A stretch of DNA of 46,757 nucleotides, taken from NCBI GenBank assembly GCA_041748795.1, contig JBGTCM010000472.1:1-46757 (forward strand), written 5' to 3'. Below, in pieces: positions 453 to 29,266 of this stretch. Every line of letters starts with the position of its first letter. Positions within the stretch are counted from its first letter, which is position 1. Under the pieces are notes generated by a model. That model ran no database searches, was not told where the DNA came from, and was given only the letters and a program-made list of their open reading frames with translations. Made by a program: the position numbers and the translations under genes. This DNA is from Pyrinomonadaceae bacterium (lineage in GTDB: Bacteria > Acidobacteriota > Blastocatellia > Pyrinomonadales > Pyrinomonadaceae).

Positions 453-3400
453 TTAGCAAATCTCCGGCGCAGCCACCAACCGCGACGTGCGAAGGATGCG
501 GTATTGGCCTAATTCGCGTGAGAGCGGGCGAACGGATGTGTCAGGGGTAGGTCCATGAATAAAGTACTGGTCATACCGGGGCATCATTTCCACGGCCAGC
601 ACACTTAGGCGAGTGTTCTTGTGCAGGTTAAACCTTTCCAGCAACGCTCGTATCTCTAACTCCGTCCACCGGCCGGCTCCAGTCGCTGGAGCGTCCAGGT
701 TTACCGAAACAATCTTAAACTTGTTCGGCACTGACTTAGGCTGAACAACTTCCAGCTTCAACTCGGTTAACAGGATATTCCGATTCTCTTTGCCATCCGC
801 CTGCCTCGTCTGCGCATAAAGCATGCACCAGATTTCCGACATGGGGGGCTTGCTGGTCACGTTCCTACCGCTGAAGACAGCCGTCGCATAATGGGCCGTA
901 GCGACTAACTCTTTCGGAGTGCGATCGACGAGAAGTTTGAGTGGCGGCGCGGGATGTTGCACACCGTTAACTCTTATTGGATGACCGAAGCGGCCCTTAG
1001 CTGTGCACCAGATTTGATTCGAGTGGCCCACCCTGATCTCATAGGTGAAGAACCCGAAGAGCTCATTAGATTCGTTATGCAATCCTGGAGGCAGTGGCAA
1101 TAAATAATGTACCGGGGAAATCTTGATTAATGCGTCCGGCTCGCTGGTCTCCGCCATCATCATTTGCATGGCGTCGATGCCGGCATTGTCGTTGGTCTGA
1201 TCGTTAGTAATGACGCGAATTAATTCATCACTGATGCCCAGCTTGGGATCTTCCTGCTTCACCATCACCTGGTCCATATTCGGGAAACTCAACAATGGAT
1301 CGGGCGCGTAGCTGAGTATCCTGGCAAAGTAGGTGTCGTTAGGATCTTTGATTGGATGTTCAAATTCCAGCCACAGGTAACGCTGGCGCACAGTTGTTTC
1401 AGAATATTCTTCGTCGCGTTGATAAGGCGAAAGCGCGTAGCCCGCAGCCACAACTTTCGGTACCTGGCTGGGTATTGTAGTGACGGGCAAATCCACATCT
1501 CGAGTGATGATTTGCTGATCGGCTGAGTCCGCCGTGACGCTGGGAATAAACTTTGGCGTCAACATATATTCAAGGTGCAGAGTGTTTGGGAAAGGGTTCG
1601 CCAGCGTAGCGGGTTTTCCCAGGTCTTTCTTTGGCTCGACCGCATCGATAAACAAGACGCGGGTATAGGTTCTGTCAGGATCGGTGGTGGCCACCCGGCT
1701 CGCAGTATCCTTCAGTTGCAAATACCCTACGACGTCAGTCTCGCGCGTGGCAGCCTCACCGGTGAATTGTTTCTCGCGACTAATCTCGATCCCCGTATCG
1801 CTCAGTCCCCTCCAGGTCCAATCCCGATTGATCTCAAACGACAGAACACATAACCAGTGATTGAAAAGATCTGCCTTGGTCGAGAAGGTCAGCGAAGAAT
1901 TATCCGGCGCCAGGGTATGCCTGATACGGTTGCTACAACCAAACTGAATTCGTTCGCCAGGTTTGCCTATTAAGGTCAACCCCGTGCAATCCACTTTCAG
2001 TTGCGAAGCCAAACGCTGCATCAGCGTGCTTTGCTCCAGTTCCTTGCCAGCTACAAGCTCCCACGTAAACGTTTGGGGGTTGTTGACTTTGGGCGGATCG
2101 GGCTGCAGGTAGATTCCTTGTAACTGCCGGGATTCCACATCCGTGCTGAAAAACTCTGTCTCCTCGGTTGCGTCTTCTCTCACAAAAAACTGGGTTGGCT
2201 CTCCGGCGCGCACGAATTCTCCAGCGATGATCGTTTCGGCAAAACCAAAATATTCAGGCTTATCTTCCTTCTCTGAGCAAACCGGCAGCAGAGTGATTCT
2301 TATGTCTCGTGATCTCGGCAAAACTATTTCGTCTGAATCATCGATGTCCGTTTGAGAAATGTTGAGATCACCATGGGTGATCTTGTTTTCAAAATCGAGC
2401 ACGTTAGCGTCGCGGTATTCCAGGGCGAGCGTAAATGGCTCCTCGGGATCAACGGAAAACGTTCGGAAGGTGGTATAGAGCGGGATGAAAGCCTCACGCT
2501 GATTAAGCGAGGCCAGGTTATCAAGTAATAACGACTTAACTTCCACGATCACCATGAAACGATCCACGTCAGGGTCAAAGTAGCTGACCTCACGTTGGTC
2601 CTTGATTCTCTCAAGGCCCACCTTTCCGGTATGGAGAAACAGTTTGTCGTCCAGGAGTTTCTGAAACGCATCGGCCGTGTCCATTTCAGTAAAGAGCAAA
2701 GCCGGATACCCGAGTCGAGGGCGGGCGACCTCGAATTCGTCTCCCTCGTAAAACACATTGGTGGATGAAGCGGGGTTGGGCTGGTCTATTCCGGGCACAA
2801 CCTTCAGTTGTTTTGGCGCCACGAATCTCTTGAAGATCACCGATGCGCTCTTTGCCGGCGCATCATTCAGCTCCCGGTCATCTTCGAGTGGGCCACCGCC
2901 GGTCATATCCGCAAGTCGAACTCGGAACTCATACTGCTTTCCATACTTCAGTTCAGGGTTCTCCGGAAGCAAAGGCTCATACAGCCCGCCTTTTTGGTCC
3001 GGCTTGGCATCGATCTTTGAATCACTGTAACTGCCGGGGTTAGCTAGTGCGCCGGAGTGGTCCAACGCGGCTGCTCGTTCGTCCGGCAAGACCAGCGATG
3101 GGCCATACCACTGGGTGAAGTAACTGGGTAACCAGAAAAGACCGGAGGGGTCGGCGTTTATTCTGGAGGGATAGACCTGCACGCCTGACTCCATCGGAGT
3201 AAGCGCCGGGGCGATTGACTCTCCCGCGAGCAGGAGCTCATCCTTGTTTTGGATTCGCACCAGCGAGGCCCAGGCGTTCTGCGGTTCCGCCTTCTCCCTA
3301 ACGTCCACGCGATAACTGAAAACTCCCAGCGGAGCGTCGATACGCGCTCCCGGCGTGGTCGGGTCGGCCAACACCTGGCGGTTTTGCCAGATGAGTAGTT

Positions 3401-4397
3401 GCTCATCGTCCCAGCCCAAACGGATTCCCGCGTCCTTCTGTACATGGATACCGTCAGGCTCTTCGCTCAGAATATTTGCGCTGACGGGTTGAAATGCATG
3501 GACGATTTTCGCGAAGCCGTCGTCGTAGTCGGCAGCCTCTATTTTGAGGAAATCAAATTCACCGTTTGGCGTCGCCGGTCCGGGAACCACCGGGAACAGC
3601 AATGCCGCAAACAATTGTCTTGGTCCATCAATATCGGGAATGCGCGCGGCATACTCCCTTAGCTCAACCGCAGGATTGACGATGCTAAACTGATTCAGCG
3701 GAGAAGTGAGATGAAAGTAGACCCAGCCGCCCTCGGCAAAATAGTCGGCGTCAGGCAAAGTCAGTGTCCACTGGTGTAACAAGCCGATGCTCTTAGCAAG
3801 TAGCGGTTGTCGCAGGCAGAATGCAATCACTCGTCCCCAGGTAATTTCATCGGCCGATTGTTGGAACGCGGGATTAAACTTAGTGTTCTTGAAAGCGCAG
3901 TGGTAGCTATCATCAGTCTTCGCAAACTCTGTTCGCGGATTAGTGAAGTTGAAGGCGCTGCGATAAGAGACCGGTAAATATTTCCGAATCCCTTCACTGT
4001 CCGCCCAGGGAGCTTCCGCGCCCATGTTCGTTGTTCCGCGAGGACTAGTAAGGGTCAGCTTAAACTGTGACGCCAGACCCTCGTAAATGAGTGGGAGGTT
4101 GGCGGGAAACGCGAGCGTTGTTGTTTGGGTGTTGGCCGTCACGCCTTCGCTGGCCAAAACAGCGGCGTTTGAAAATGGGTACGAACTCAATCCCCGAAGC
4201 GTCGTCACTTCGAGTTGAAGATTTGCACTGATGAACCGCGGAAGGTTCACACTGCCTCCGCCATTCAATTGACTTGGAAACGGCGACTGCAGATTTAGCA
4301 ATCCCTGGGTTGGCAGCAACAGCACGTTGAGCTCCAGTTGGTCGCCGGAGATGCGCTGCGGGAAAGTGAGAATGCGGAGTTTTTCAGGAAGTAGCAC
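453..4397 (-). CDS. Giant hypothetical protein, 1314 aa, no recognisable domain
   Basis: Uninterrupted 3945-nt ORF with a GTG start. It begins 33 nt after the stop of the upstream 1777-aa ORF on the same strand. By eye there is no signal peptide, no long hydrophobic helix and no catalytic motif. Confidence 0.85.
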   Translation of the reverse strand: MLLPEKLRILTFPQRISGDQLELNVLLLPTQGLLNLQSPFPSQLNGGGSVNLPRFISANLQLEVTTLRGLSSYPFSNAAVLASEGVTANTQTTTLAFPANLPLIYEGLASQFKLTLTSPRGTTNMGAEAPWADSEGIRKYLPVSYRSAFNFTNPRTEFAKTDDSYHCAFKNTKFNPAFQQSADEITWGRVIAFCLRQPLLAKSIGLLHQWTLTLPDADYFAEGGWVYFHLTSPLNQFSIVNPAVELREYAARIPDIDGPRQLFAALLFPVVPGPATPNGEFDFLKIEAADYDDGFAKIVHAFQPVSANILSEEPDGIHVQKDAGIRLGWDDEQLLIWQNRQVLADPTTPGARIDAPLGVFSYRVDVREKAEPQNAWASLVRIQNKDELLLAGESIAPALTPMESGVQVYPSRINADPSGLFWLPSYFTQWYGPSLVLPDERAAALDHSGALANPGSYSDSKIDAKPDQKGGLYEPLLPENPELKYGKQYEFRVRLADMTGGGPLEDDRELNDAPAKSASVIFKRFVAPKQLKVVPGIDQPNPASSTNVFYEGDEFEVARPRLGYPALLFTEMDTADAFQKLLDDKLFLHTGKVGLERIKDQREVSYFDPDVDRFMVIVEVKSLLLDNLASLNQREAFIPLYTTFRTFSVDPEEPFTLALEYRDANVLDFENKITHGDLNISQTDIDDSDEIVLPRSRDIRITLLPVCSEKEDKPEYFGFAETIIAGEFVRAGEPTQFFVREDATEETEFFSTDVESRQLQGIYLQPDPPKVNNPQTFTWELVAGKELEQSTLMQRLASQLKVDCTGLTLIGKPGERIQFGCSNRIRHTLAPDNSSLTFSTKADLFNHWLCVLSFEINRDWTWRGLSDTGIEISREKQFTGEAATRETDVVGYLQLKDTASRVATTDPDRTYTRVLFIDAVEPKKDLGKPATLANPFPNTLHLEYMLTPKFIPSVTADSADQQIITRDVDLPVTTIPSQVPKVVAAGYALSPYQRDEEYSETTVRQRYLWLEFEHPIKDPNDTYFARILSYAPDPLLSFPNMDQVMVKQEDPKLGISDELIRVITNDQTNDNAGIDAMQMMMAETSEPDALIKISPVHYLLPLPPGLHNESNELFGFFTYEIRVGHSNQIWCTAKGRFGHPIRVNGVQHPAPPLKLLVDRTPKELVATAHYATAVFSGRNVTSKPPMSEIWCMLYAQTRQADGKENRNILLTELKLEVVQPKSVPNKFKIVSVNLDAPATGAGRWTELEIRALLERFNLHKNTRLSVLAVEMMPRYDQYFIHGPTPDTSVRPLSRELGQYRILRTSRLVAAPEIC

Positions 4398-4430
4398 GAT
4401 GGTTATCTCTGTTGGTTAGTGAAAGTACAG

Positions 4431-7400
4431 CTACGCAATCTGACGACCCTCTTCCCAGGTGTCGGAAAACGAAATGTCGATGACCCAGAGGATTGTGATA
4501 TCAATCGAGAACGTGACTTGAGCTATGCAGTTGGTTTCATTAGCGGTACGCGTGACGGATCCGCCCGCTTCAATTTGAATAGTGACACCTACGAGGCCGC
4601 CGCAGATTTCCGCATGTCCGCGGAAGAGCATGAAGGCCCCGACCGTGACGGAGGTGGATGAAACGCCGACCTCGACCTCAATCATGTAAAGGACCGAAGC
4701 ATTGCCGACCACCGGCAGGCCCACCACTATTTCTACTCCAAAACCGAATTTCATTCTCAAAATGATTCCGGCTTTCGAGTCCGCTGCGATTCCAAGATTG
4801 GCCTGGCCCACAGCGTAGACACTGGCAGCGGCGAGAGTGAAACACATCACCTGAATCCGGCCGTAGAATTCGACGTAGGCGCCGCAGGCGGGAACCAGTT
4901 GTTTCAAATCGGTCGGGATTGCCATTAGCATGTTGAAATAGAAACCAACTTTCAGGCCGGCTTCCAATTTCAACGGGGGATTTGGATTGACACTTAACTG
5001 AGCGGGCGATGGGAATTTAATGACCGGAATCTCCTGGCTACAGTCGAATTTATATTCCCAACTGTCCGGCGAATTGCTCATGCCGACCTTCATGCCGTTG
5101 TCGAAATCATCACCCGAGAGCGTTGCCAGAATCTGAAGAATATCTTTTACAGTCTGCAGCACCGGCCCAAACTGCAGATTGGGCTTGTCGTATTTCGTGC
5201 TGGCGCCGCTTGACGCGTTAAAGTTCCCATCCACCCACATCAACCGGTCGAATGGACCAAGATCGACTACGATGCGAATATTCGATAAGGCAGCTTTCCA
5301 CTTATCTGCCAAAGCACCCGCCGAATCAATTCCGAGTTTGAGGTTTCCTGCGCCGCTGTTGCTTTGGTATTCAGCGTAGATTTTTAAGATCCCGGGCTCG
5401 TCCACAAAGGGATAGGAGAAGTTGGGCGGCTGCAGACTGCTGAGATTGAGATTTCTGTCAGCCATCTTCATCAGCCCTTCGCCGAGAATCTCAATTTCCT
5501 TTTCAGCATTGGTCAACGGCAGCGCGTTAGCGACGTTTGGAAACACCCCCTTGGAGTTGAGCAATTTGTAGGCATCGGCAAAATAGGTTTGGCTGCTCTT
5601 CAGCTTCTTCTCATTGGGCGCAAACTGTGGGATGTCGAAGAGTAATTTCTGCGTTCCGGTTGATTGGACCACACCGAAGTTGGAATTGGAGTCGGGCTTA
5701 ACCACGTCACGTGGATCGGCTATCCGGAATATTGAATCCCCCTGACGGCGGATCAGCGGCACACTCTTCCCTTCCTCGATTAGCTTTACGTCCTTCGTAT
5801 CGACTTGTTGGGTGACCACTGACCATGATCCGTCCTGCGGCAGGATCAGGGATCCGCGAACCGCGGCGGTAAAGATGTGATTGTCTGCATTGTCGAGGGC
5901 GGGATTCAAATCCACCCGCGCCAGGCGCATTTTTTGTTGGGAGTTTGCCACGTCGATGATGCAATCGACCGGGCCGCCCAGTGATCCATCCTGGAAGTTC
6001 AGAAGTTCGGCAAGCACTTTCGGCGGTATCAGGATCGACGAGGGCTTCAATTGGACGTAGCCCAGCATCTTTCGGGATTGGACTTTGAAGTCGCCCGCTA
6101 CCGTGTCCTTGACGCCACCGCTGGTGACGTTATCCAGATGAACGTCTCCGTCAAAGACCACGGCCTGGAGTTCCACGTCCAACTGATCATTAAAACTCCC
6201 AAGGCTGGCAAAAACCTTTTGCCACTCGACCAGACTGTTGATGCCGAGTTTGGTTGGCAAACCGCTTTCGTTCAGGCTGAATGACGACCCAAAGTTACCT
6301 GCCGCCGGGTAGTCTTTGATTTCGCGAACATCCGTAATGCCCTTCACTGCGCCTTTGTGAAACTCATAGGTGTTGTTAACCGGCACCTTATTGAAACCAA
6401 AAACGATCGAGTAGTTGCAGTCAAAGGTTGCGTCACTCTCGGCCTTCCAGCCTGAGTCCGAACGGAAAACATAACCGTTTGGTGAACGCATCAGGGTGAT
6501 GGTCCGGACCACATGAACGCAGCCAGCCTCCGTGTACATCACGCTTCGCACCTGAACCACTTCATGGGCCGTACGCCCAACCAGCACATCAAACTTCGCC
6601 TGGCTTACATCGGCAATCGTTGCTTCGTGATTGAACCAGTCACTAAACATGCTGGCGCCATAGCCCGAAAACTCTATCTTCTCCAGCGGAACCTTGGGCT
6701 TATCGACGGACATGATGTTGTTGAAGATTGTCTTGACCGTCTTGCCCAGTGTGCTGCCGGTGAGCGGAACCCCAAACAGTACCCACTTAATGTTGTTATC
6801 TATCTGAAGAGTTCTGCCGCTGAATGATGGGCGTTCGCCTAATGCTTTTGGTTTGAGCGCCACCGATTTGATTTGTAATCCACCATGCAGTTCATCGAAG
6901 TGCGGGCGATTGAAGGAAAGCCTGGCGGTGTCGTTGTTCGGGTTGCCGGCGTCGCGTTCAAAGCTGGCCTGCGCGATCAAGGCAAACGGTAACGTAAATA
7001 TTGAATGCAACTGGCGGGCGGTTTGCTCGTCGTTGTATTCCTTTATGAAATGTTTGGTCACCGAAAGAGGCGTGACCGGAACCAGGTATGGGCTTTCGGA
7101 GAAAAAGCGCGTGGGTGGCCCATCGTCGTCGTAGACTACCAATCCCGGAGTGATCGTGATCAAATCATCCAGCCAGTCGTTGATGTTGAAAGGGCCTTCG
7201 ACCGGCAAAGGGATGTTTGAAATTGGTTCCCAGGAGATCTGGGGCAAGGTCAGAGCTCGCAGGTTCTGCGCTACTCCGACTACGTCCATGTTCAGGATCT
7301 GAAGCGGCATCCCGGACACCAACATCAACGAGTTCGTTGCTCCAGAAAGGTTGGCATTGCCTCGCTCGTCGTTCTTCACTCGTATTGCAGTTCCCCAACT

Positions 7401-9764
7401 GACGCCCATCTGATCGGCCTTGCTGGAAACGTCGAGAAGGCGAAACAGATCCGGCAGGATATCGCGGCCACCCTGGTCACGCTCGGGCGGTACCGCAACG
7501 TTGGCGGATCGCGCCGAACGTTCCCCCGAAACTGATGCCGCAAAACTCCGATCATCAGTGCGAGCGGTGTTTTCGTTTGCAACGCGCAATACTCTGTCGA
7601 CTTCAATCGTCTTGTTCGACAGGTGGCCAAACATGGGATTCGAGTCGAGGTTGCGCAAAATCGATTGCCCATCGTCTGATTGCGTTAAGCTCTCGATAGG
7701 CCTGTTAAAAGTCGCGCGCACTCGCGAGGAGTCGAGTTCGACTTTTGTTCCTGTCTCAATTGTCGGCGTTGGCAACGACGCTCGCTCGAGCGCATCGCGC
7801 GAGATGAGGCTGCGGTTAAACGTCCTCACTCCTGCCTGGAAATTATTTGACGGTGTTGCGATGGGTTGATTGCGCTCGGAAGCGGCGTTAATTGCAGACG
7901 CACTATTGAAGAGGAGCGAAAGGTCAAGCGGCGCAAACCTGAAGTAAACGTATGGCGAACCGAATGCATCGTCTTCTTCAGCCACCGATGGGTCCGGCCA
8001 CTTCACGAAACCGGCGAGCGCAATTTGCAGTTGTCCGAATTGTCTTTGGGATCCTCCCCTCAGGAGCGACGTATAACTGGCCACATACGGATCCGGGAGT
8101 GTAGGCAGATAGAGATAAACCGCATGAAGCAGCGCTATCACGCCCTTCTCTATCCGGTCATCGACCAGATCGCCCGCGAGAAACAAACTATATGGCCGGG
8201 TAACGCCGAAGAGCGCATTTCGTAAAGTGATGCTGCGCGGTTCAAACGCTTCGGGCTTGTCGAAATTGCCGTCAAACAAAAGGTCGTTGTCGAAAAGAAA
8301 GGCTTTATAAGAGCTACCGGTTTGCACGATGCTCGCGAGCGCGATTGAAGATTCAATCTTGAAGGGTGCGCCGTTGGAATCCACAGGTCGATCAAGCGAC
8401 GCCTTATGTTTGCAGAAAAACAGAACTGTTTCGCTGCCTTTAGATGCCGAGATGTAGATGAACGGAAACGCCTTACCGAAACTCAGGGTGATTTCTGAAT
8501 GATGTTGTGCCGGCGAATTCTTCCAGAGACTCCAACGTTGCTTGCCGCTTAGGTTTGAGGCAAAGAAATCAAGCACCGTTAACATGCCGGGTTCAACGAT
8601 AATGCCCGGCTGGACGAGTTTGGTGAGACCCCCCTTTATTCCCTTCCAAGCGGCCGTTATGCCTTTAGACACGGCAATCCCAAGAGCGCCGGTTCCCGCT
8701 GCCGCACCCAACTGCGAAGGACTAACCTTTGCCGCCGGAAGCAACCATCCGCTGCCGCTTTTTAGTTTTGCTTTTCCCTTATACCGGCAAAGTTTCGAGT
8801 CGGAGGAGAAAATCTCAAAGGTGTCTGGTTGGCGGCTCGTAGTTTTAACCGAATAAGGAATTAGGATTTGGCCCAGCGGACCCAGCCACACCGGAGAAGA
8901 AGGGCTGAAGGTGAAGTCGGCGCCGCAACCGAAAACCTTGCAGGACGCATCCCCTGCAGCTAGTTGTCCGGTGCCGGTACTGAATTTTAAAGTAAGCGTT
9001 TCGGGCAGCTTGACCTTTGCTTTGTTTGCATCAAAACCGGCAGACGATGACGCGGGCCCTGTTTTATTCTGATTGAGGTTAAGCTGAAGAGTTGCGTTTG
9101 CGCCTAACTTGATAATGATCTTACCGTCAGTCACCTCTGCCTTCTGAGATAGATCGAGCGAGCCTCCAGTCACCTTCAATCCGGTATAGTGATCTTTTAG
9201 CGCCGCATCCGCAGCAATCAAGTCTGAAGCTATCCATACGCTCCCAGGCTCGATTTTATAAGAGTTCTTTTCGCTGACCGTTCCCCAAACGGGAATCAAC
9301 AACGACGGCGCGGAGGCCCCTTTTCGGTAAACATGGACCATCTTCGTTGGTTGATAAATATCAAACCAAACCTGAAGACCAAGATCATCGATGAAGGGAC
9401 CCAATGACGAGGTGGGGGCCATACCCGATCCCCACACGGGCGCGGACTGCCCCAGCAAGTTGTTGTGAAATTCCGTCTCGCGGCGGAAAACGAGCGGCGG
9501 AGCGGCCGCCTCCTCAGTTACGACGCGACCCTCCAGTAACTCCTCGAGGTGGCTATAACGTTCAACTGGTCCCGAGGCAGCTTCCATTTGGTGAGCACCA
9601 GCGTGGTGCAACCGATCCCCGAAAACTTGAAACGTGGAGTCGTCGGCAAAACTCTCGGCGAGCGTTCGTTGCAAGGCTTTGAGATCCGCGCCGGATGCAC
9701 GGCCGGTGGGTTTCAGGTTGCCGGTCAGCTGCTCAACCCGGGTAAAGATAAGCTCTTTTTCCAT
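4431..9764 (-). CDS. Giant hypothetical protein, 1777 aa; the C-terminal ~180 aa are a Gly/Val/Ile/Ala-rich, beta-strand-like segment
   Basis: Uninterrupted 5334-nt ORF with an ATG start preceded by a purine-rich gaagaagag. No signal peptide and no recognisable motif. The last 180 aa run from LKLEAGLKVGFYF to WEEGRQIA and show alternating hydrophobic/small residues. Confidence 0.85.
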   Translation of the reverse strand: MEKELIFTRVEQLTGNLKPTGRASGADLKALQRTLAESFADDSTFQVFGDRLHHAGAHQMEAASGPVERYSHLEELLEGRVVTEEAAAPPLVFRRETEFHNNLLGQSAPVWGSGMAPTSSLGPFIDDLGLQVWFDIYQPTKMVHVYRKGASAPSLLIPVWGTVSEKNSYKIEPGSVWIASDLIAADAALKDHYTGLKVTGGSLDLSQKAEVTDGKIIIKLGANATLQLNLNQNKTGPASSSAGFDANKAKVKLPETLTLKFSTGTGQLAAGDASCKVFGCGADFTFSPSSPVWLGPLGQILIPYSVKTTSRQPDTFEIFSSDSKLCRYKGKAKLKSGSGWLLPAAKVSPSQLGAAAGTGALGIAVSKGITAAWKGIKGGLTKLVQPGIIVEPGMLTVLDFFASNLSGKQRWSLWKNSPAQHHSEITLSFGKAFPFIYISASKGSETVLFFCKHKASLDRPVDSNGAPFKIESSIALASIVQTGSSYKAFLFDNDLLFDGNFDKPEAFEPRSITLRNALFGVTRPYSLFLAGDLVDDRIEKGVIALLHAVYLYLPTLPDPYVASYTSLLRGGSQRQFGQLQIALAGFVKWPDPSVAEEDDAFGSPYVYFRFAPLDLSLLFNSASAINAASERNQPIATPSNNFQAGVRTFNRSLISRDALERASLPTPTIETGTKVELDSSRVRATFNRPIESLTQSDDGQSILRNLDSNPMFGHLSNKTIEVDRVLRVANENTARTDDRSFAASVSGERSARSANVAVPPERDQGGRDILPDLFRLLDVSSKADQMGVSWGTAIRVKNDERGNANLSGATNSLMLVSGMPLQILNMDVVGVAQNLRALTLPQISWEPISNIPLPVEGPFNINDWLDDLITITPGLVVYDDDGPPTRFFSESPYLVPVTPLSVTKHFIKEYNDEQTARQLHSIFTLPFALIAQASFERDAGNPNNDTARLSFNRPHFDELHGGLQIKSVALKPKALGERPSFSGRTLQIDNNIKWVLFGVPLTGSTLGKTVKTIFNNIMSVDKPKVPLEKIEFSGYGASMFSDWFNHEATIADVSQAKFDVLVGRTAHEVVQVRSVMYTEAGCVHVVRTITLMRSPNGYVFRSDSGWKAESDATFDCNYSIVFGFNKVPVNNTYEFHKGAVKGITDVREIKDYPAAGNFGSSFSLNESGLPTKLGINSLVEWQKVFASLGSFNDQLDVELQAVVFDGDVHLDNVTSGGVKDTVAGDFKVQSRKMLGYVQLKPSSILIPPKVLAELLNFQDGSLGGPVDCIIDVANSQQKMRLARVDLNPALDNADNHIFTAAVRGSLILPQDGSWSVVTQQVDTKDVKLIEEGKSVPLIRRQGDSIFRIADPRDVVKPDSNSNFGVVQSTGTQKLLFDIPQFAPNEKKLKSSQTYFADAYKLLNSKGVFPNVANALPLTNAEKEIEILGEGLMKMADRNLNLSSLQPPNFSYPFVDEPGILKIYAEYQSNSGAGNLKLGIDSAGALADKWKAALSNIRIVVDLGPFDRLMWVDGNFNASSGASTKYDKPNLQFGPVLQTVKDILQILATLSGDDFDNGMKVGMSNSPDSWEYKFDCSQEIPVIKFPSPAQLSVNPNPPLKLEAGLKVGFYFNMLMAIPTDLKQLVPACGAYVEFYGRIQVMCFTLAAASVYAVGQANLGIAADSKAGIILRMKFGFGVEIVVGLPVVGNASVLYMIEVEVGVSSTSVTVGAFMLFRGHAEICGGLVGVTIQIEAGGSVTRTANETNCIAQVTFSIDITILWVIDISFSDTWEEGRQIA

Positions 9765-9900
9765 CGCGACTCTTCTTCTGCGAATGCGTGGTGACGGTGA
9801 AATAACGATTCGGCTTTGGTTCGTCCGTTGGACGACCGGAAACCTGGATACGGCGAGTACTTGGGGGTGGAGTATGTTTGCCGTTCAGGCCAGCAATGTG

Positions 9901-9917
9901 GGACAGACATTCCTGTC
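9901..9917. repeat. Copy 1 of a short dispersed hairpin repeat, ggacagacattcctgtc
   Basis: The same ggacagacatt core recurs at 20601-20620, and its reverse complement at 43567-43585. All three copies are intergenic. Confidence 0.6.
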
Positions 9918-10074
9918 AGTCTGGCCCTGGTTACAGAGCTGTCCGAGCTGTCGGGGTATTACCACAATTCGCACTGAGCGAGGACTACGGCGAATCGTTT
10001 ATCGGCCGGTGTAGCGAGAATGCGAAGAGGCTAGTCCGGCTCGAGAGAATTCAAATAGTTACGGAACGTTCGGC

Positions 10075-10103
10075 AGCCTAAGCCCGGATGATTCAAAAGT
10101 CAA
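10075..10103 (-). promoter_or_regulatory. Possible sigma-70-type promoter for the giant-gene pair (TTGACT-N17-TAGGCT on the minus strand)
   Basis: The reverse complement of 10098-10103 is TTGACT and that of 10075-10080 is TAGGCT, with 17-nt spacing. It lies in the 472-nt gap upstream of the 1777-aa ORF. Pattern match only. Confidence 0.2.
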
Positions 10104-10236
10104 TAGACAATCTACTCCTCGAGTGGTGCAATTAACGCAGACCGGATCCAAAGTTTGTAATTATCCGTTCGATCCGATGGACGCGTTCATTCACCCCTCA
10201 AAATTGGTAACTCTTTTAAAACACTCAAGCGCTGCC

Positions 10237-13080
10237 TTACCCAAGTGACGGGTCGGGCTCCACACGCTTGAGGATAACTAGCGTAATATCGTCAGAGGCG
10301 GGAGTCCCATGCGCAAACTTCGTGAGTGCCCCCTCTATTTTGTCACGGATGCCGGCGGCTGAACGTTCAATATTTTGCGACAAAACTTCCTGCAGGCGCT
10401 TTTCGGCGAATTCTTCACCCGCCGGATTCTGCAATTCGGTGACGCCATCGGAGTATGCAACGAGGACGTCACCGTGATGCAGTTGCGCAGTTCCCTCAGT
10501 CCAGCTAGCGTTGGGGAATATGCCTAGAGGGAGGCCAGTCGAACTAAGCTTTTCAAGGGTGCCGTCGGCGTGCGCGATGAGCGGTGGATTATGGCCAGCG
10601 TTAATGAAGGCCAATGAGCCGGTGAGCTGATTAAGCTGGGCATAGAAGAGCGTGACGAATCGATTGGCTGGAATGTTTTCTGCAAGGTAGCGGTTGACTT
10701 CCAAGATTGTATCAACGATCGAGCGCTGAGAAGCGACTTGCGCGTGCACTGCGGCATGTAATGAGGACATTAGGAGCGCGGCCGCAGTCCCCTTACCGGA
10801 GACTCCCCCCAGAGCTATTATCAAATGACCATTTGGCCTTTCAATGAAGTCGTAATAGTCGCCCCCGATCTCGTAAGAAGGGAGACTGTTGCCTACCAGC
10901 TGATAACCAGGTATTAGCGGCGGTGCCGCTGGTAGGAAACGCTGCTGAATCTCACTAGCCAATCGCAATTCGCGGTCGAGACGCTCTCTCTGCATTTCTT
11001 CCTCACGCAGACGGGCAGTCTCTACACGGATAGCGGCTACCGAACCGAGCGTCGTGAGCACCTTCAAGTGATCTTCAGTGAAGCGAGAGGTGGTCAAGGG
11101 CGAGTCCGCATAGATCAGGCCGAATATTCGATCGCCCACGCCCAATGGGACGGCGAGCACAGAGCGGATCCCATGTAACGTTATCGAGTGCGACATTACG
11201 CGAGGATCATGCTGGGCGTCGGAGGTGAGAATCGCCCTGCTTCGGATGACAACCTCGTCAATGATGTTGCGGCTAACTCTAACCTCACCCACCTCTGGTC
11301 GGCGGTCACGCGTTTCCGCAGCGCGAACGCGAACCTCTCCTGACTCGTCGTCGCGCAGCATAATGATGCAACGCTCGGCGGGCACAGCGTCGAAGACAAG
11401 GAGCGCAACCTGGCGGAGCGTCTCGTCTAACGTGGCCGCAGCCAAGAGCGTGACGCCTACCTTTGAAATGAGAGCAAGCAGGTCACTACTTAATTCTTTA
11501 TAAGCGGACAAGTCATCGTACAGTTCGCGGTAAATCTTTTTCGTCCAACTTTCGGTAAAAACATGCTCGTAAATCCGGTTTCGAACACGAAGTTGGAGAT
11601 TCTCATCAGCTACAACTAATCCTGACAATTTAAGTGCGGAGTGGACCGCCGATAATGGGTTATCCTTTACCACATGCCCTTGTGTAATGTGTTCGTAGAT
11701 TGTAAGTATTTCCAGGCTCTCTTTGTCCTTGGTCAATCTGTCTCGTACGAAATTTAGATTGGGTTCTTCACGGCTGGCCTCTTGAGATAAGAAATGCTCT
11801 TCGACCAGACGATCAACATCAGCCTCCTGGCCTGTTTCGAAGATTGCCTCAGCAACTAATTTGCAAAGCTTTTGCGTCAGGTATGGATGCCCACCTGTCC
11901 AACCTAGAACGCTCCCGAGCGTTTGCATACTTTCTTTGTGTCCTTCGCTCAAACCACCTGCCAGCGGTTTCGCCTCTTCAAATGAAAAGTCTTCCAGGTG
12001 GATTCCGTGTCCAATATTGAAGGGAGTTCTTTTCTGATCTTTTATCAGGTCCGACGGACTGGCCACGCCCAGGAGAACAAAGCTGAGACGATCATACTCC
12101 GACTGCAGGGCCCGTGAGTTGTAACAGGCGCGAATCGCCGCAAAGAAATCATCCGTGAAGGGTAGACTAATGGTCGTATCAATCTCATCTACAAATACAA
12201 CGATCTGCTCACGAGTTTCTGCTAAGACCAGATCATAAAAAAACTCAGTGAGACGCTGTAAGGCTGTAACCTCTGCGCGCGCGACCCACCACTCCTTCAA
12301 ATTAACCTTTAACTTAAGTGCTCTGACAATTGTATTTGCGATTCCGTAATACCATTTACTGGCGCCTCCCTCGCCCTGTTCGCTCCCAATCAATGTTAGG
12401 TCAACGAACACCGATACAATGCCTCGCTTTTGTATTTGCCTGGCCGTATGGACCATGAGACTAGACTTTCCCATTTGGCGTGGAGTAAGGACATAGCAGA
12501 TATCACCCGCGAGTAGGTGCTCGCATAGTTCCCGATCGGCGCGCCTTTCTATGTAGCTTGGAGCTTGTGGTCGCAGCGTTCCACCCACGACATAAAACTC
12601 AGTCCCGGTTCTTGTCTGCGACGACGAAACTTCCGGGACCACTTCATCGGCCTTTAAGGTGTCGTAGTAGTCTGGGCCGAATCCTTGAACGGCTCTGCTT
12701 AGTTCTAATGTTGCCGTGTGGCTCAAATCGCCCCCGGCGGTCCGCTCAGGCAAAGGGTCCGTGAAATCCGCGGCGCGTGAAAGCGACTCGTCGACCTCGC
12801 TGTAGATAATCAACGTGTCCCCAATTTTTATGAGCCCGCCCGGGGTGAGCACCACTTGTCCGGTTAGACTTGCTCCCTCGTAGGATGTCCCGTTGGCCGA
12901 CCCTAAATCCTGAAGAACATACTGATTTCCCTCGCGCCGGACTTCGGCATGGATTCGCGAGGCCATCGGGTCGGGAATGCATACGTCGTTCACCGCCGCC
13001 CGCCCGATAGTTATGCGCAACTTATCCAAATAGAGCCGTTGCTGAAAGCCGTCCGGAGAATTGATAAGTAACTCTGGCAT
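10237..13080 (-). CDS. FHA - AAA-like (STAND-type) NTPase - GAF - PP2C/SpoIIE-type phosphatase multidomain protein, 947 aa
   Basis: FHA: ITIGRAAVND..SRIHAEV..LQDLGSANGT. Walker A: TPRQMGKSSL. Walker B: VVFVDEID. GGHPYL motif present. GAF-like segment around residues 535-690. PP2C/SpoIIE motifs: EIGGDYYDF, GGVSGKGTAAALLMS, YSDGVTE, SDDITLVILKR. Confidence 0.8.
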   Translation of the reverse strand: MPELLINSPDGFQQRLYLDKLRITIGRAAVNDVCIPDPMASRIHAEVRREGNQYVLQDLGSANGTSYEGASLTGQVVLTPGGLIKIGDTLIIYSEVDESLSRAADFTDPLPERTAGGDLSHTATLELSRAVQGFGPDYYDTLKADEVVPEVSSSQTRTGTEFYVVGGTLRPQAPSYIERRADRELCEHLLAGDICYVLTPRQMGKSSLMVHTARQIQKRGIVSVFVDLTLIGSEQGEGGASKWYYGIANTIVRALKLKVNLKEWWVARAEVTALQRLTEFFYDLVLAETREQIVVFVDEIDTTISLPFTDDFFAAIRACYNSRALQSEYDRLSFVLLGVASPSDLIKDQKRTPFNIGHGIHLEDFSFEEAKPLAGGLSEGHKESMQTLGSVLGWTGGHPYLTQKLCKLVAEAIFETGQEADVDRLVEEHFLSQEASREEPNLNFVRDRLTKDKESLEILTIYEHITQGHVVKDNPLSAVHSALKLSGLVVADENLQLRVRNRIYEHVFTESWTKKIYRELYDDLSAYKELSSDLLALISKVGVTLLAAATLDETLRQVALLVFDAVPAERCIIMLRDDESGEVRVRAAETRDRRPEVGEVRVSRNIIDEVVIRSRAILTSDAQHDPRVMSHSITLHGIRSVLAVPLGVGDRIFGLIYADSPLTTSRFTEDHLKVLTTLGSVAAIRVETARLREEEMQRERLDRELRLASEIQQRFLPAAPPLIPGYQLVGNSLPSYEIGGDYYDFIERPNGHLIIALGGVSGKGTAAALLMSSLHAAVHAQVASQRSIVDTILEVNRYLAENIPANRFVTLFYAQLNQLTGSLAFINAGHNPPLIAHADGTLEKLSSTGLPLGIFPNASWTEGTAQLHHGDVLVAYSDGVTELQNPAGEEFAEKRLQEVLSQNIERSAAGIRDKIEGALTKFAHGTPASDDITLVILKRVEPDPSLG

Positions 13081-13142
13081 CGGATACAGAAGTTAGTAAA
13101 ACCGCCTTCAGAATAGTTTCAATGTGTAGTTGATCGGGATTA

Positions 13143-14678
13143 TCACAGGTGCTTACGAAAATATTCGGCATACAGCTGACACCGCATTTGGAGCGAGTGC
13201 CTCGTTTCCCCTTTGACCAATCCGGCTGCTTTAAGCCTTTGGAAATCAGTCTCATCATCACACATATTTTGGCGCAAGACATTCTGCATCACCGTTATTA
13301 GTTTTTCACTGTTCTGTATGGACCAGATGTAACGCCTCAAATGGTCGCTGAATGGCCCTGTCTCATCGGCGGCAGTTCTACATAACTCCTGAACGGTTAG
13401 ATTAGAGTTGGCCAAGGTGAAGAGTGCGTGCCGGATTAGGTATGGGTGTCCACCTAATAGATTCATTAGGTTGTTGATGTCGTTATCACTCTTCAACTGA
13501 TCCTTATATTTCGCGTTCAGTTCTTTAACTTCATCAAGGGAAAAGTCTTCGAGCCTGATTGAGAGACCTACATTGAAAGGAGATTGGTTTATGTTTTGTA
13601 TCCACAAATATGGTTCAGTTGAGTGGGCGATTATGATATTTAGGCGGTTCCAAATCTCTCGTGTCGCTCGAAGATTATGCCAACCTCGGATAGTTGCGAA
13701 GAATTGATCCCTATAGGGAAGATCGAAAAGTAAATCAACCTCGTCGAGTAAAAAAGTGACTGGTAATTCGGAGCCGGGCAAGATCACCTCCTCGATGTAA
13801 TCGGTTAAATTCTCTTTGGCCCCAAGAGAAGCATCCCAGCACCCGTCAGGCTTAGAGACTCCGAGGCTTTTGGCTAACCGACGTGCGAGATATTTTAATA
13901 ACTTATCAAGGCTTTCCAGCGGGTCGACGTCTACCAACTGAAAATCCAGGTAAAATGCCCTCCCATTGCGCTGCTGGGCAGCATGATAAGCCCTGGCGAG
14001 CAGGGAACTCTTACCTAATTGCCTCACGCCCTTTACGACAGTAGTGGTTCCATCAATATAGCCTTGTTTTTCTATCTGGGCATCAGCGCCTCGTCTGACA
14101 TAAAAAGGGGAACCGAGCTTGACCGTCCCGGTCTCTAACCACATCCGATGGTCTGCTGAAGGCAGCGGGGCGCCAGAGCCTTCGGTTGCATTTGTCAATT
14201 CTCTGATACCAGATAGCGAAGAATTATCTCGCTCAACTTTTCCGTTGTTGGGCAGGCTAACTGATTGTGCGATCGCAGATACTATGCGATTACCAATGGT
14301 CGCGAAATCATCACCTTCTTGCCAGATGGTGAACTGTATAGGGTCGAGATAGGCACCCAGGTCATAGGGAAGCTCTCCAGTAAACGCTACTCTGATCGGC
14401 AATATGACAAAGGGTTTTGCGAGGCCCTGGGTAAGCTCATACGCAAGTTTCACTTCCTGCCTAACCATATCGCTCAAAATTGACTGCTTTGACAGGAGAA
14501 CTATGAAGTAGTCTGACTCTCTGATTTGTTGTCTTATTTCGTCGGCCCACCTCATACCTACCGAGATTTGCTTATCAGTGAAAGCAACAATCTGATGCTC
14601 ATTAAGGAAATGCGCCAAGAACTCTGCCAGGTCCTGATCGGGATACACATGGCGATAGCTAATAAAGGCCGCGCTCAC
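13143..14678 (-). CDS. TIR domain - AAA-like (STAND-type) NTPase protein, 511 aa
   Basis: The N-terminus AFISYRH..DYFIVLLS..SDMVRQEV is TIR-like, with a candidate catalytic Glu at E75. Walker A: GVRQLGKSSL. Walker B: TFLLDEVD. SPFNVG..LEDFS and GGHPYL motifs are shared with the neighbouring gene. GTG start with a GGGAGG RBS 5 nt upstream. Confidence 0.8.
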   Translation of the reverse strand: MSAAFISYRHVYPDQDLAEFLAHFLNEHQIVAFTDKQISVGMRWADEIRQQIRESDYFIVLLSKQSILSDMVRQEVKLAYELTQGLAKPFVILPIRVAFTGELPYDLGAYLDPIQFTIWQEGDDFATIGNRIVSAIAQSVSLPNNGKVERDNSSLSGIRELTNATEGSGAPLPSADHRMWLETGTVKLGSPFYVRRGADAQIEKQGYIDGTTTVVKGVRQLGKSSLLARAYHAAQQRNGRAFYLDFQLVDVDPLESLDKLLKYLARRLAKSLGVSKPDGCWDASLGAKENLTDYIEEVILPGSELPVTFLLDEVDLLFDLPYRDQFFATIRGWHNLRATREIWNRLNIIIAHSTEPYLWIQNINQSPFNVGLSIRLEDFSLDEVKELNAKYKDQLKSDNDINNLMNLLGGHPYLIRHALFTLANSNLTVQELCRTAADETGPFSDHLRRYIWSIQNSEKLITVMQNVLRQNMCDDETDFQRLKAAGLVKGETRHSLQMRCQLYAEYFRKHL

Positions 14679-15227
14679 AAAACCCTCCCAATAGGTTGTT
14701 TAGGTACTACGTCGCGCAAGAGATAGGACTGCTAAGTGAGACTGAGAAAACTACCGTTCATTTGATGAAAAGCGCGGGAAACGATATTCCTCACGGCGCG
14801 GAGTGTCAATAAAAGCAGAACGAACTAGCGGACGGTTGATTTGCACGGGAGCACCAGTGCTGTGCGGTTTCGTTACGAGTCGTGGATTAATGAACGCTAA
14901 ATCAATCAAATCTGACAAGTTTTCAGCAGGGGCCCAGAAACGTGCTTCCATTCTGGATTCGAGGTTAGTGGGAGAGCGGTCAATAAATAATTTGCTAGCA
15001 AAGGCTTTACGCCCGCAGCACAGTCGATCAAAGAGACAGCGACAAGATCGTTCGTCAAGACGCTATCAGCAATAAATTCTTGAACGTTAGTCCGAGACAC
15101 GCCCTTTTTGATCCTGCAAAACTTTTGATCGTTTCGATTCCCATCGTCGCGCAGCCAAAATTGTTCGCTAAACTATTACGATTCTCTCGAAATCGATCTT
15201 CTTCCGCAGGTAGGCGAAGCCAAAAAA

Positions 15228-17711
15228 CTAGAAAGTCTTCAAAAATTCGATCAGCGCGCGCTTGTCTTCGTCGCTCAAGCCTGGTTCTCCGCCCGGAAAT
15301 TGATGGGTGCCGAAATAGTGGCCTCGGTTTACAACCAGGTCGGGGCACTTGCTGAGTTTAAGTAGCTGCGGCACGAGGGGCGTTAGAACTCGTGTCGCCT
15401 CTTGATCACTGGCTCCGCGCGGCAGGGCCTTTAGTGCCCTCTTTACTTCCAGCAGAAGTTTCAATATCTCTGCATCATATTTCCCGCGCTCCAGGAGACT
15501 CGAACCCTCGTACAGAATATTCAGGTTCGCAAGCAGGCTAACAGGCGTGCCCTTAGGCAACGGACCAATCTCGATACCTTCGTCGCCAACTAACCAAGGA
15601 AGATAGCGGGAGAAGAAACCGCCGGATCCCTGAAGGAAGTCGGGAAGGAAACCCGCGCCGACCCTTAGATAGCTCTGTTGGGTAGTGCGATCGATGGCGC
15701 CGGGAATCTTGTCTCCCAGCACCGAGTCCTTGTCACGTTTCTCGGGCCAGAGCATTTGCTCAATCGAATTCTGAAACGACCGCATACGTGCATCTACCGA
15801 TGGACTCTCTTCAAACTTGCCGACGCTGTTGTTTAGTAAGAACGGCGCCGTGGACCACAAACTGATTAGAGAAGGCGGCCGAGTGTAACCACGACCACCG
15901 GCGGGCATCTCATACTCATGCGGAGCGCCGGTCACAGGATCGTACCAGGTGATTTTGCCAACCGAAGGGAGGTCTTTATACGACTGCGAGGAGAAGTTGT
16001 CCCAGATATTCCCGCCGATTGCGTTGGTTGCCAGCGGACTACATGCGTTGGTCTGTAACAACGTCACCGGAACTCTGAATTCGGTGGAAAGGTAGTTGTC
16101 TTTCAGGAAGTCGTCGGCGAGTACGATGTTTCGCATCTTCGCCTTGAAGTCTTCGGTTTGGGTCCATGCCCAGTACTTGTTCCAACAATTGAGATAGTCC
16201 TTACCATTGCAACCTCGGGCGTCGTCGACTCCCGGAGCGGGCTCTGGGACCTTGCTGGAGTGACAACGTGCGCAGCGCTCAGCAAACACCGTCTTGCCGC
16301 GTGTGAGTTGGGCCTGGTCTTTGGTGAGATAGGCCTCACCACCAGGGGCGTCCTTCAGATAGTGAGGCTCCGTCGTCGCAAGGAAAAACGCAGCCATGTT
16401 CATCGTCTGATTCTCGGTGGCCTCGAAGTAACTCGAGTTGCGTCGCGAGACCGAGATCTCAATTGGCGTAATACGCTTGCCGCCCACCAGGGGATTGAAA
16501 TGAAGCAGCCACTCCTCGCTGAACACTCCGATGTTTATGTAGACGCGGTTCAACGCGCCGAGTGCGCCAACAGAATCCGAACCGTCTTTTAAGACTCGTG
16601 GCGTGTAAACGGTGTCCGGAGGCTCGAAATATTTAGTGAGTGGTCCATCCTTTACGTACTCGTTGAATTGCCGGTTATCTTTTCCCCCACCCGCCAGAGT
16701 TTCCTTGCCCCAGCGTTTGGCCAGCTCCAAACGCGGCCCGAGAAGGTACATGGCGTTCATGGTTCTTGGGTTGTTGATGCTGTCGGTCGAGACTAGTGAT
16801 GTGTCCAGGGTTCCCGGTCGGGACGTATGGAACAACTGAAAGATGAAATTGCTTTCGTCTTTTTCCCAATAGAAGATTCTGTCGATCCAGAAGTATTGTG
16901 CGCCGACGTTGGAGCTCAGATTTTCCCACTTCGGATTCTCGGCGTCAGCGGGAGGCTTGATCGGATTTGGACCAACGTGACAAAAGCCGCACGACATTCC
17001 CACGCGATACGGTCGCACCAGGTCTTTCGAATAGTAGTAAGAAGGATCCGTGTAGTATCTCTCCGCATCCCATTTTTGCGCGGCGGCTTCGTCAAAGTCA
17101 GGATTCGTAAACAAACGTAAGCCGACAATCCCGGTTTCGTATCCGTAATACGAGCCGACCTCCATATTCTTACCGCGAGAGCCGATTTTCACACCCGGAT
17201 ATTTTTGCTCATTCTCAAATGGCTCAGGCGGACAATCGGCGCGGCGCTTATCAAGCCAGAGGTTAAAGCGCTTGGGATCCGGAGCTGTTGCCTTTTCAAA
17301 GCACGGAGAATTAACGAGTCCGAAATACTTCCAGCGATTATCCCGGCTGAATTGGTATTTACTCTGGAGATTCGGATGTGAGGAAAGGATCTTTAGAAAG
17401 TCGAGAGCGCCGACGCTGGCGTTGACCATCTTGTCCCAAAACCTGTCATTGCCGGCGGTCCAAACAATCCAGGTGTTACGGCCTTTTACCTGTTCGGGTG
17501 TCAGCGGCAACCCGCCGTCCATATCATGAAAGAAATCTTCATCCGCAGCCGGGAAGCTGGTTGCTGCTCGTCCGGCTACGCGCGCCTCGTCAGGCACCTC
17601 ACCCGACTGTGGTCCATCCGACCTAATCCATTTGACGAGCACTACGCCACCAGCGACGACGGCGAGCACCACGACAATGATCGTTAACCTGAGGCGAGAC
17701 TTGGTAGTCAT
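15228..17711 (-). CDS. Membrane-anchored c-type cytochrome family protein with two CXXCH heme motifs, 827 aa
   Basis: N-terminal signal-anchor LTIIVVVLAVVAGGVVLV. Heme c motifs CGFCH and CARCH. The precise family was not recognised. Confidence 0.6.
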   Translation of the reverse strand: MTTKSRLRLTIIVVVLAVVAGGVVLVKWIRSDGPQSGEVPDEARVAGRAATSFPAADEDFFHDMDGGLPLTPEQVKGRNTWIVWTAGNDRFWDKMVNASVGALDFLKILSSHPNLQSKYQFSRDNRWKYFGLVNSPCFEKATAPDPKRFNLWLDKRRADCPPEPFENEQKYPGVKIGSRGKNMEVGSYYGYETGIVGLRLFTNPDFDEAAAQKWDAERYYTDPSYYYSKDLVRPYRVGMSCGFCHVGPNPIKPPADAENPKWENLSSNVGAQYFWIDRIFYWEKDESNFIFQLFHTSRPGTLDTSLVSTDSINNPRTMNAMYLLGPRLELAKRWGKETLAGGGKDNRQFNEYVKDGPLTKYFEPPDTVYTPRVLKDGSDSVGALGALNRVYINIGVFSEEWLLHFNPLVGGKRITPIEISVSRRNSSYFEATENQTMNMAAFFLATTEPHYLKDAPGGEAYLTKDQAQLTRGKTVFAERCARCHSSKVPEPAPGVDDARGCNGKDYLNCWNKYWAWTQTEDFKAKMRNIVLADDFLKDNYLSTEFRVPVTLLQTNACSPLATNAIGGNIWDNFSSQSYKDLPSVGKITWYDPVTGAPHEYEMPAGGRGYTRPPSLISLWSTAPFLLNNSVGKFEESPSVDARMRSFQNSIEQMLWPEKRDKDSVLGDKIPGAIDRTTQQSYLRVGAGFLPDFLQGSGGFFSRYLPWLVGDEGIEIGPLPKGTPVSLLANLNILYEGSSLLERGKYDAEILKLLLEVKRALKALPRGASDQEATRVLTPLVPQLLKLSKCPDLVVNRGHYFGTHQFPGGEPGLSDEDKRALIEFLKTF

Positions 17712-25564: not shown

Positions 25565-25568
25565 ATAA

Positions 25569-26432: not shown

Positions 26433-26469
26433 TTTGTTGAGGGTTATCGGGTGACGTTGCAGGCGACTC

Positions 26470-29157: not shown

Positions 29158-29266
29158 AAAGACTGAGAGTCAAATCGGTCAAAGGAGTAGTTCATTCTGA
29201 TTGGAAGACCGAACACTTGGCTGGTCCTTTTTCTTAGCGCTTTAGGAGAGTTCCCAAAGGAATCGG

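Follow-up and report, generated by a model that had tools for sequence, protein, structure and literature searches.

Whether four consecutive genes running in one direction also make up one functional system is the question raised by one end of a 46,757-nucleotide (nt) contig of a Pyrinomonadaceae bacterium (JBGTCM010000472.1), which was analyzed as a whole and is hereafter referred to as the window. A first-pass annotation had listed four minus-strand open reading frames (ORFs) there and had proposed that a TIR-NTPase, an FHA-NTPase-GAF-PP2C protein, and two giant proteins devoid of recognizable motifs might constitute a single conflict or signaling unit. The ORF listing matched the four genes exactly, namely a TIR-AAA_35 gene (13143-14678, 511 amino acids (aa)), an FHA-AAA_35-GAF-PP2C gene (10237-13080, 947 aa), and the genes designated G1 (4431-9764, 1777 aa) and G2 (453-4397, 1314 aa), and also reproduced the intervening spacers of 62, 472, and 33 nt as well as the summed length of the two giants (3091 aa). 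The TIR, FHA, NTPase, GAF, and PP2C domain calls were confirmed by Pfam, and nothing was found for the giants in Pfam, NCBIfam, PADLOC, or PHROGs, in agreement with the annotation. In the following, the first two genes (10237-14678) are termed module A, in which the TIR-bearing protein is the T-type, effector-bearing partner and the FHA-bearing protein the P-type partner, and the pair of G1, an orphan giant predicted to be all-beta, and G2, an orphan with predicted beta-sandwich domains, is termed module B (453-10110).

The proposed unity of the four genes did not hold, as each of the two gene pairs was found without the other. What stood of the proposal was the first half: the first two genes are a conserved pair with the architecture of a candidate NTP-dependent conflict/signaling unit and without a PADLOC match, and the giants are not part of it. 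In our judgment, the 14.2 kb quite probably bring together two modules of two genes each, which are autonomous and inherited separately. Both halves are real, conserved, and undescribed in the literature searched. The distinction is of practical importance, since cloning and phage-challenge work would be misdirected if the four genes were taken as one system.

Separate occurrence of the two gene pairs

The distribution of module B was surveyed by scanning reference genomes, one per species, with a G1 alignment as the query, which confirmed 370 relatives; 77 G1 loci with flanks of up to 10 kb were then fetched and probed by tblastn with the window proteins. G2 was located directly downstream of G1 in all 73 loci with sufficient room (the remaining four of the 77 reach a contig end), typically after a spacer of 10-60 nt. 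No TIR-AAA_35 or FHA-AAA_35 gene was detected in any of the 77 loci, including relatives at approximately 85% DNA identity, and the single related signal was a weak PP2C match located 6 kb off in locus L015. Clustering of the 1083 ORFs of these loci yielded only two conserved clusters, G1 (73 loci) and G2 (complete ORFs in 65 loci), the next-commonest cluster being found in 13 loci, and the strand of the gene upstream of G1 was almost evenly distributed (32 vs. 34). The 150 nearest neighbors were miscellaneous metabolic genes with no Pfam family occurring more than three times, among which PADLOC identified only single instances of Septu, QatC, MzaA, IetA, and TIR genes. Neither the clustering nor the Pfam and PADLOC searches of the neighbors revealed a conserved third gene or a conserved secretion, defense, or mobility context for G1-G2. 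Since only G1 and G2 were conserved together, with variable genes around them, they were regarded as an autonomous two-gene cassette. From the other side, neither G1 nor G2 was found in any of the 82 other loci holding the NTPase pair.

The boundary between the modules emerged from the comparison with the closest loci, L001 and L014, which derive from Pyrinomonadaceae metagenome-assembled genomes and show approximately 85% DNA identity. In blastn, each of them aligned with the window as one unbroken block, which begins at the stop codon of G2 (453/455) and reaches 10109/10111, with the same endpoint in both. The block includes a conserved minus-strand region 5' of G1 (9765-10110) comprising a promoter-like site and a leader of approximately 300 nt. 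The promoter-like site, TTGACT (10098-10103) and TAGGCT (10075-10080) separated by a 17-nt spacer on the minus strand, lies at the block edge, 345 nt upstream of G1, and the counterpart of TAGGCT in L014 reads TATGGT. This non-coding 5' region is conserved at 82% in L001 and 68% in L014, the coding DNA being approximately 85% identical.

Homology of L001 to the window was confined to 15228-15567 and 453-10109, with none between. L001 keeps the cytochrome-c gene found upstream in the window, and its slot of 1.8 kb contains (at 364-1605 of that locus) a gene for a 413-aa CAP12/Pycsar-type TIR effector (PADLOC Effector-TIR, 1.8e-42), with no cyclase visible beside it on the short contig. Because L001 has another TIR gene at this position, the minus-strand region 10111-15227, which has the cytochrome-c gene on one side and the cassette on the other and holds module A, was regarded as a strain-variable slot, and the NTPase pair thus lies outside the cassette. 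Modules A and B probably adjoin each other because module A landed in the variable slot beside the cassette.

The alternative that all four genes form one conflict system, with sensing and signaling assigned to the TIR/NTPase pair and the role of effectors or targets to the giants, draws on their co-directional arrangement and on the terminator scan, which found no terminator-like site in the 472-nt gap between the phosphatase gene and G1, so that read-through from the former into the latter is possible. It could also appeal to the TIR-type genes, of three distinct types, that adjoin G1-like genes in three settings, i.e., the window, L001, and L160-L162. The last of these (e.g., L160, 3670-7243) hold the most divergent G1-like/G2-like pair (1620 + 1207 aa), beside which lies a divergently transcribed cluster of ThsB_TIR/TIR_2, pNTSase1, and TPR-S genes. 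These observations weigh against a strict separation of the modules, and G1-G2 may, with low probability, be loosely linked in function to TIR genes; the TIR gene beside the L160-L162 pair is a probable coincidence, since approximately 70 other loci are without any TIR gene. Considering that co-occurrence of the pairs was absent in both surveys, that the end of the homology block and the promoter-like site lie between the pairs, and that miscellaneous metabolic genes are the closest neighbors of G1-G2, a four-gene system appears highly improbable, and we prefer the reading of two separately inherited modules.

The tandem AAA_35 NTPases of module A

The T-type protein consists of a TIR_2 domain (aa 5-124, nt 14307-14666, Pfam 6e-19) with the catalytic-type Glu (E75) and an AAA_35 domain (PF14516; aa 183-509, nt 13152-14132, Pfam 1e-88), and the P-type protein, likewise on the minus strand, of an FHA domain (aa 23-87, nt 12820-13014), an AAA_35 domain (aa 167-509, nt 11554-12582, 4.5e-32), a GAF domain (aa 551-685, nt 11026-11430), and a SpoIIE/PP2C domain (aa 750-939, nt 10264-10833, 1.3e-45), all assigned by Pfam. 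The paralogy of the two NTPase modules, also claimed initially, was supported by 26% identity over 349 aa (E = 7e-32). The GTG start codon of the TIR-AAA_35 gene is preceded by a GGGAGGG ribosome-binding site, and a minus-strand promoter-like site, TTGACA-17-TATCGT (14781-14809), was identified upstream by a consensus scan as a pattern match only.

When metagenomes were scanned with the P-type AAA_35 module, the one linked to the phosphatase, 80 loci were obtained, and 77 loci, L078 and L079 included, had upstream sequence for a pair test. In 74 of these 77 testable loci, a T-type AAA_35 gene was located directly upstream of and co-directional with the P-type gene, often overlapping it by 1-4 nt; the window fits this tandem pattern of an effector-AAA_35 gene followed by an extended AAA_35 gene. 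The N-terminal domains of the 39 T-type proteins scanned were variable, with TIR (27) and Ser/Thr kinase (Pkinase, 12) domains accompanied by the rarer Trans_reg_C, BTAD, GerE, CHAT, trypsin, Mrr, cyclase, SEFIR, and, in one protein, EAD7. The P-type proteins possess an N-terminal AAA_35 domain and a variable C-terminus of 110-1030 aa, which contained WD40/PD40 propellers in approximately 18 of 50 cases. The Walker A, Walker B, and GxP motifs were invariant throughout the 39 T-type sequences (with GKS and DE as the Walker A and B residues) and the 50 P-type sequences, the GxP motif reading GGHPYL with its G and P invariant in both paralogs at the motif level, and the tandem paralogs are apparently competent NTPases. 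In some loci, a second P-type AAA_35 gene follows the first in a T-P-P order (L090, 2900-5537; L092, 900-3531), and arrays in which one effector protein is served by several sensors may thus exist in the family.

No PADLOC model covered the pair, the Avs, NLR, and bNACHT models matched neither of its proteins nor their relatives, and no solved relative of AAA_35 was detectable by sequence in the PDB. In the literature searched, PF14516 was unmentioned, text matches for AAA_35 were irrelevant, and the pair did not appear in Kaur 2020 (PMC7159879), a 2026 STAND survey, or a 2025 preprint on TIR systems; the initial remark that no described system with this combination of genes was known to the annotator was thus in agreement with our searches. 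An architecture split between an effector on one NTPase paralog and a putative sensor on the other is widespread and without description in that literature.

The P-type protein of the window is unusual within this family. The FHA-AAA_35-GAF-PP2C architecture was otherwise found only in P0237 (61% identity) and, without the FHA domain, in P0238 (53%), on whose contigs a TIR-AAA_35 gene directly precedes and G1 and G2 are absent, and fusions of GAF/PP2C to a P-type AAA_35 were restricted to three loci, namely the window, L078, and L079. Proteins of approximately 575 aa with the FHA, GAF, and PP2C domains but no NTPase are abundant in Pyrinomonadaceae; these relatives showed 68-76% BLASTP identity over 42-44% of the query, corresponding to the C-terminal GAF-PP2C part, and were 65-69% identical over the shared parts in a nine-sequence alignment (A10). 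The alignment revealed that an insert of approximately 410 aa (linker plus AAA_35) replaces the short linker of the ordinary proteins. Judging from its sequence, the 947-aa protein is a rare chimera in which an FHA-GAF-PP2C phosphatase typical of the lineage has received a P-type NTPase as an insert.

A possible working of module A can be inferred from what has been published on STAND/NLR proteins. The P-type protein would act as the sensor, its input in the window being a GAF ligand and/or the phospho-Thr status perceived via FHA/PP2C, and its nucleotide-dependent co-oligomerization with the T-type protein would cluster the TIR domains. Growth would be stopped by the clustered TIR domains through NAD+ cleavage or the production of a signal. 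An input of this kind is likely because the domains of the host phosphatase replace the propeller, and the frequent kinase fusions in the T-type proteins are consistent with it; the window pair would be a rare version wired into Ser/Thr phospho-signaling. Two points weigh against this scheme. Defense genes near the NTPase pair were not enriched relative to the G1-G2 loci used as a control set. Moreover, the PP2C motif ALGDVSGKG, which every ordinary FHA-GAF-PP2C protein in the alignment retains, is changed to ALGGVSGKG in the window (aa 759, nt ~10804-10806) and to ALGEVSGKG in P0238, and the phosphatase may be altered or inactive in the NTPase-fused versions. Of the other Asp motifs, GGDYYD, SDGVTE, and DDITLV are intact in the window.

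A non-immune role constitutes a serious rival because some outputs are DNA-binding, a defense-island context is lacking, and the phosphatase has a housekeeping origin. Module A might be a housekeeping NTPase-gated switch into Ser/Thr phospho-signaling, for instance in RsbU-type partner-switching or stress control: the fused FHA-GAF-PP2C unit is very common and apparently a housekeeping regulator in Pyrinomonadaceae, some T-type partners bear DNA-binding outputs (Trans_reg_C, BTAD, GerE) or kinases, defense islands are not enriched, and the context within the window is metabolic. Such a switch would hardly account for the dominance of TIR outputs, together with CHAT, trypsin, Mrr, and EAD7, which are conflict-typical according to published surveys. 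The patchy occurrence of the pair, its location in a strain-variable slot that holds a Pycsar-type TIR effector instead in L001, and the integrase and type I methyltransferase genes near the pair in L078 also argue for a role in conflict. We regard the housekeeping switch as rather unlikely and favor a putative nucleotide-gated TIR effector pair as the function of module A.

The G1-G2 cassette

The giants were considered to be real genes rather than chance ORFs because the full-length homologs of each number in the hundreds. When the G1 core was used in an exhaustive phmmer search, the matches fell into 749 clusters (50% identity), of which 592 had E <= 1e-10, and G2 gave 1399 homolog clusters. 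Full-length homologs of G1 with 50-65% identity occur in Acidobacteriota, Bacteroidota, Proteobacteria, Planctomycetota, and others, and all full-length members comprise 1500-1870 aa, none of them with an added informative domain. The pair was also found on a megaplasmid of Bacillus toyonensis (1617 + 1232 aa) and a replicon of Chlorohelix (Chloroflexota; 1695 + 1202 aa), in which G2 retains 33-40% identity, as well as in Actinomycetota. Cultured carriers include Bacillus toyonensis DC11, Bradyrhizobium rifense CTAW71, Caballeronia terrestris LMG 22937, Chitinophaga rupis DSM 21039, and Mucilaginibacter aquaedulcis CECT 8102, and no phage-borne copies were found. The two genes thus represent a large unannotated protein space, with hundreds of clusters and approximately 3100 highly conserved residues to which no domain, structure, or name is attached.

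An AlphaFold2 model of G1 aa 770-1777 (pLDDT 82, pTM 0.71) was nearly all beta and ended in a C-terminal helix followed by approximately 12 strands. The C-terminal region of long amphipathic strands (aa 1598-1775, nt 4440-4973, minus strand) is a candidate membrane-inserting beta-barrel or sheet: strict dyad alternation is seen in its last nine strands (aa 1598-1758), which have 16-22 residues each and one face that is 73-100% hydrophobic, and this alternation is kept in the Bacillus and Chlorohelix homologs. The significant Foldseek matches of G1 were transmembrane beta-barrels, including LptD (3e-6), usher, MtrB, porins, and BamA. Against viral structures, the G1 core gave generic beta-rich or barrel matches only, and the G1 family profile had no match among PDB sequences. 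The model of G2 aa 1-1200 reached a pLDDT of 71 with a comparatively shallow alignment, and its Foldseek matches in the PDB were generic beta-sandwiches only (arrestin, alpha-2-macroglobulin, Ig/FN3). A paralogous relationship between G1 and G2 was rejected (hhalign probability 0.3%). At the C-terminus of G2 (453-500), Acidobacteriota and homologs as distant as those of Bacillus share a motif G..RILRTS.L...(E/N)(I/L)C, to which one to three more Cys residues are often added at the extreme end.

These predictions weakly suggest that G1 and G2 might form a binary membrane-acting complex, in which the amphipathic C-terminal strands of G1 would insert into a membrane, with the array of beta-sandwiches in G2 as a partner or regulator. 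In its full form, the proposal that G1-G2 is a new binary membrane-inserting machine of approximately 3100 aa, with its own promoter and long leader and spread horizontally over more than 10 phyla, monoderms included, whose G1 strands would build a barrel or pore either after release or from the cytoplasmic side, is tentative, and we hold it to be doubtful; if true, it would amount to a bacterial toxin or cell-killing apparatus of a new class. The barrel-like Foldseek matches with template modeling (TM) scores of at most 0.4, the absence of a signal peptide or transmembrane helix in both G1 and G2, and a defense-gene context that is only scattered among the 150 neighbors, with no PADLOC match of G1 or G2 themselves, all count against the membrane-acting model.

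The pair could otherwise be an exported surface or outer-membrane structure of the autotransporter or usher type, a view that fits the matches to LptD, usher, porin, and autotransporter beta-domains, the arrangement of a helix and then approximately 12 strands at the G1 C-terminus, and the Ig/FN3-like domains of G2, which are typical of surface proteins. The lack of a signal peptide or transmembrane helix bears on this explanation as well, the N-termini of both proteins being conserved and non-hydrophobic. Furthermore, Bacillus, Chloroflexota, and Actinomycetota, all without a classical outer membrane, carry the pair, and no secretion genes are conserved near it. An exported structure is consequently quite unlikely, and the membrane-acting complex, however tentative, is the role that we put forward for G1-G2.

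A regulatory RNA is one candidate role for the G1 leader. The 345-nt region corresponds to no known riboswitch or other RNA in Rfam, even at E <= 1, and no meaningful covariation was seen among three sequences. Downstream of G2, a GC-rich 12-bp hairpin (367-394, strand unassigned) has a T7 tract on the plus strand and no U-tract as a minus-strand terminator, and nested perfect or near-perfect inverted repeats pair 35-64 with 124-192. The repeats and the hairpin could be an element resembling a repetitive extragenic palindrome or a miniature inverted-repeat transposable element (REP/MITE-like), or else a terminator of an unseen plus-strand transcript.

Elsewhere in the window, Rfam identified group II intron domains on the minus strand (29262-29905; D1-D4 at 29579-29905, D5/D6 at 29262-29333), and the short distance of approximately 250 nt between D1-D4 and D5/D6 suggests that the intron either lacks the usual internal ORF or is a degraded copy. 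The region 24380-29157 contains a patatin-like phospholipase gene (25569-26432, plus strand), preceded by a 394-aa ORF without a Pfam match, and a PAS-GGDEF-EAL gene (26470-29157, minus strand).

Comparison with known systems

At the fold level, the C-terminal strands of G1 resemble LptD, the PapC/FimD ushers, and autotransporter beta-domains, and the beta-sandwiches of G2 resemble Ig/macroglobulin-domain arrays. In contrast to such outer-membrane barrels and Ig arrays, G1 and G2 gave low TM-scores as noted above, show no sequence similarity to them, carry no signal peptide, and are present in monoderms, and they were not considered members of the beta-barrel or Ig/macroglobulin families. The FHA, GAF, and PP2C parts of the 947-aa protein correspond to the RsbU/SpoIIE-family phosphatases of Acidobacteriota, from which the protein differs by the AAA_35 insert and by the Gly replacing one conserved PP2C Asp.

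STAND NTPases, as reportedly defined by Leipe, Koonin and Aravind in 2004, are characterized by a Walker A motif GK[ST], a Walker B motif hhhhDE, and a helical domain with GxP. Both NTPases of module A have the Walker A/B and GxP motifs, and a winged-helix/NOD fold is also part of the definition. In profile searches, AAA_35 alone was strong, AAA_16, AAA_22, and ATPase_2 remained below their cut-offs, and NACHT, NB-ARC, and nSTAND did not match. The initial label "STAND-type" is thus consistent with the motifs, and no profile or structure match establishes it.

Like the Avs/AVAST, bNACHT, and TIR-NLR proteins, the module A family combines an N-terminal effector, a central P-loop NTPase with Walker A/B and GxP motifs, and, in many P-type proteins, C-terminal WD40 repeats, and it would be expected to share the same logic, in which NTP-dependent oligomerization activates the effector. 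Unlike these single-chain systems, its effector and putative sensor are split over two tandem paralogous NTPases, which belong to AAA_35 (PF14516) instead of NACHT or NB-ARC and have no match among the Avs, NLR, and bNACHT models of PADLOC. The pair also differs from Thoeris, since ThsB models gave only weak matches (E 1e-3 to 4e-2) and the TIR gene is accompanied by an NTPase gene, with nothing ThsA-like present.

In plants, paired NLRs combine a sensor with a helper or executor, and some of them carry integrated domains. Module A resembles them, by analogy only, in having adjacent paralogous NTPases, one with a TIR domain and the other with variable or "integrated" domains, the integrated part in the window being a copy of the host FHA-GAF-PP2C phosphatase; common descent, a hetero-complex, or a decoy role of the phosphatase is not implied by this likeness. 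If the T-type and P-type proteins do co-assemble, they would provide a bacterial model for sensor/helper NLR pairs.

Paired-paralog NTPases are also known from bacterial conflict systems such as the DO-GTPases, in which two NTPases are combined with swappable TIR, CHAT, trypsin, and EAD domains (PMC7159879). The NTPase class differs, AAA_35 not being mentioned in that work, and the module A family shares with these systems the paired paralogs, the swappable effectors, and EAD7 in one T-type protein. Module A is best seen within the STAND/NLR-like kind.

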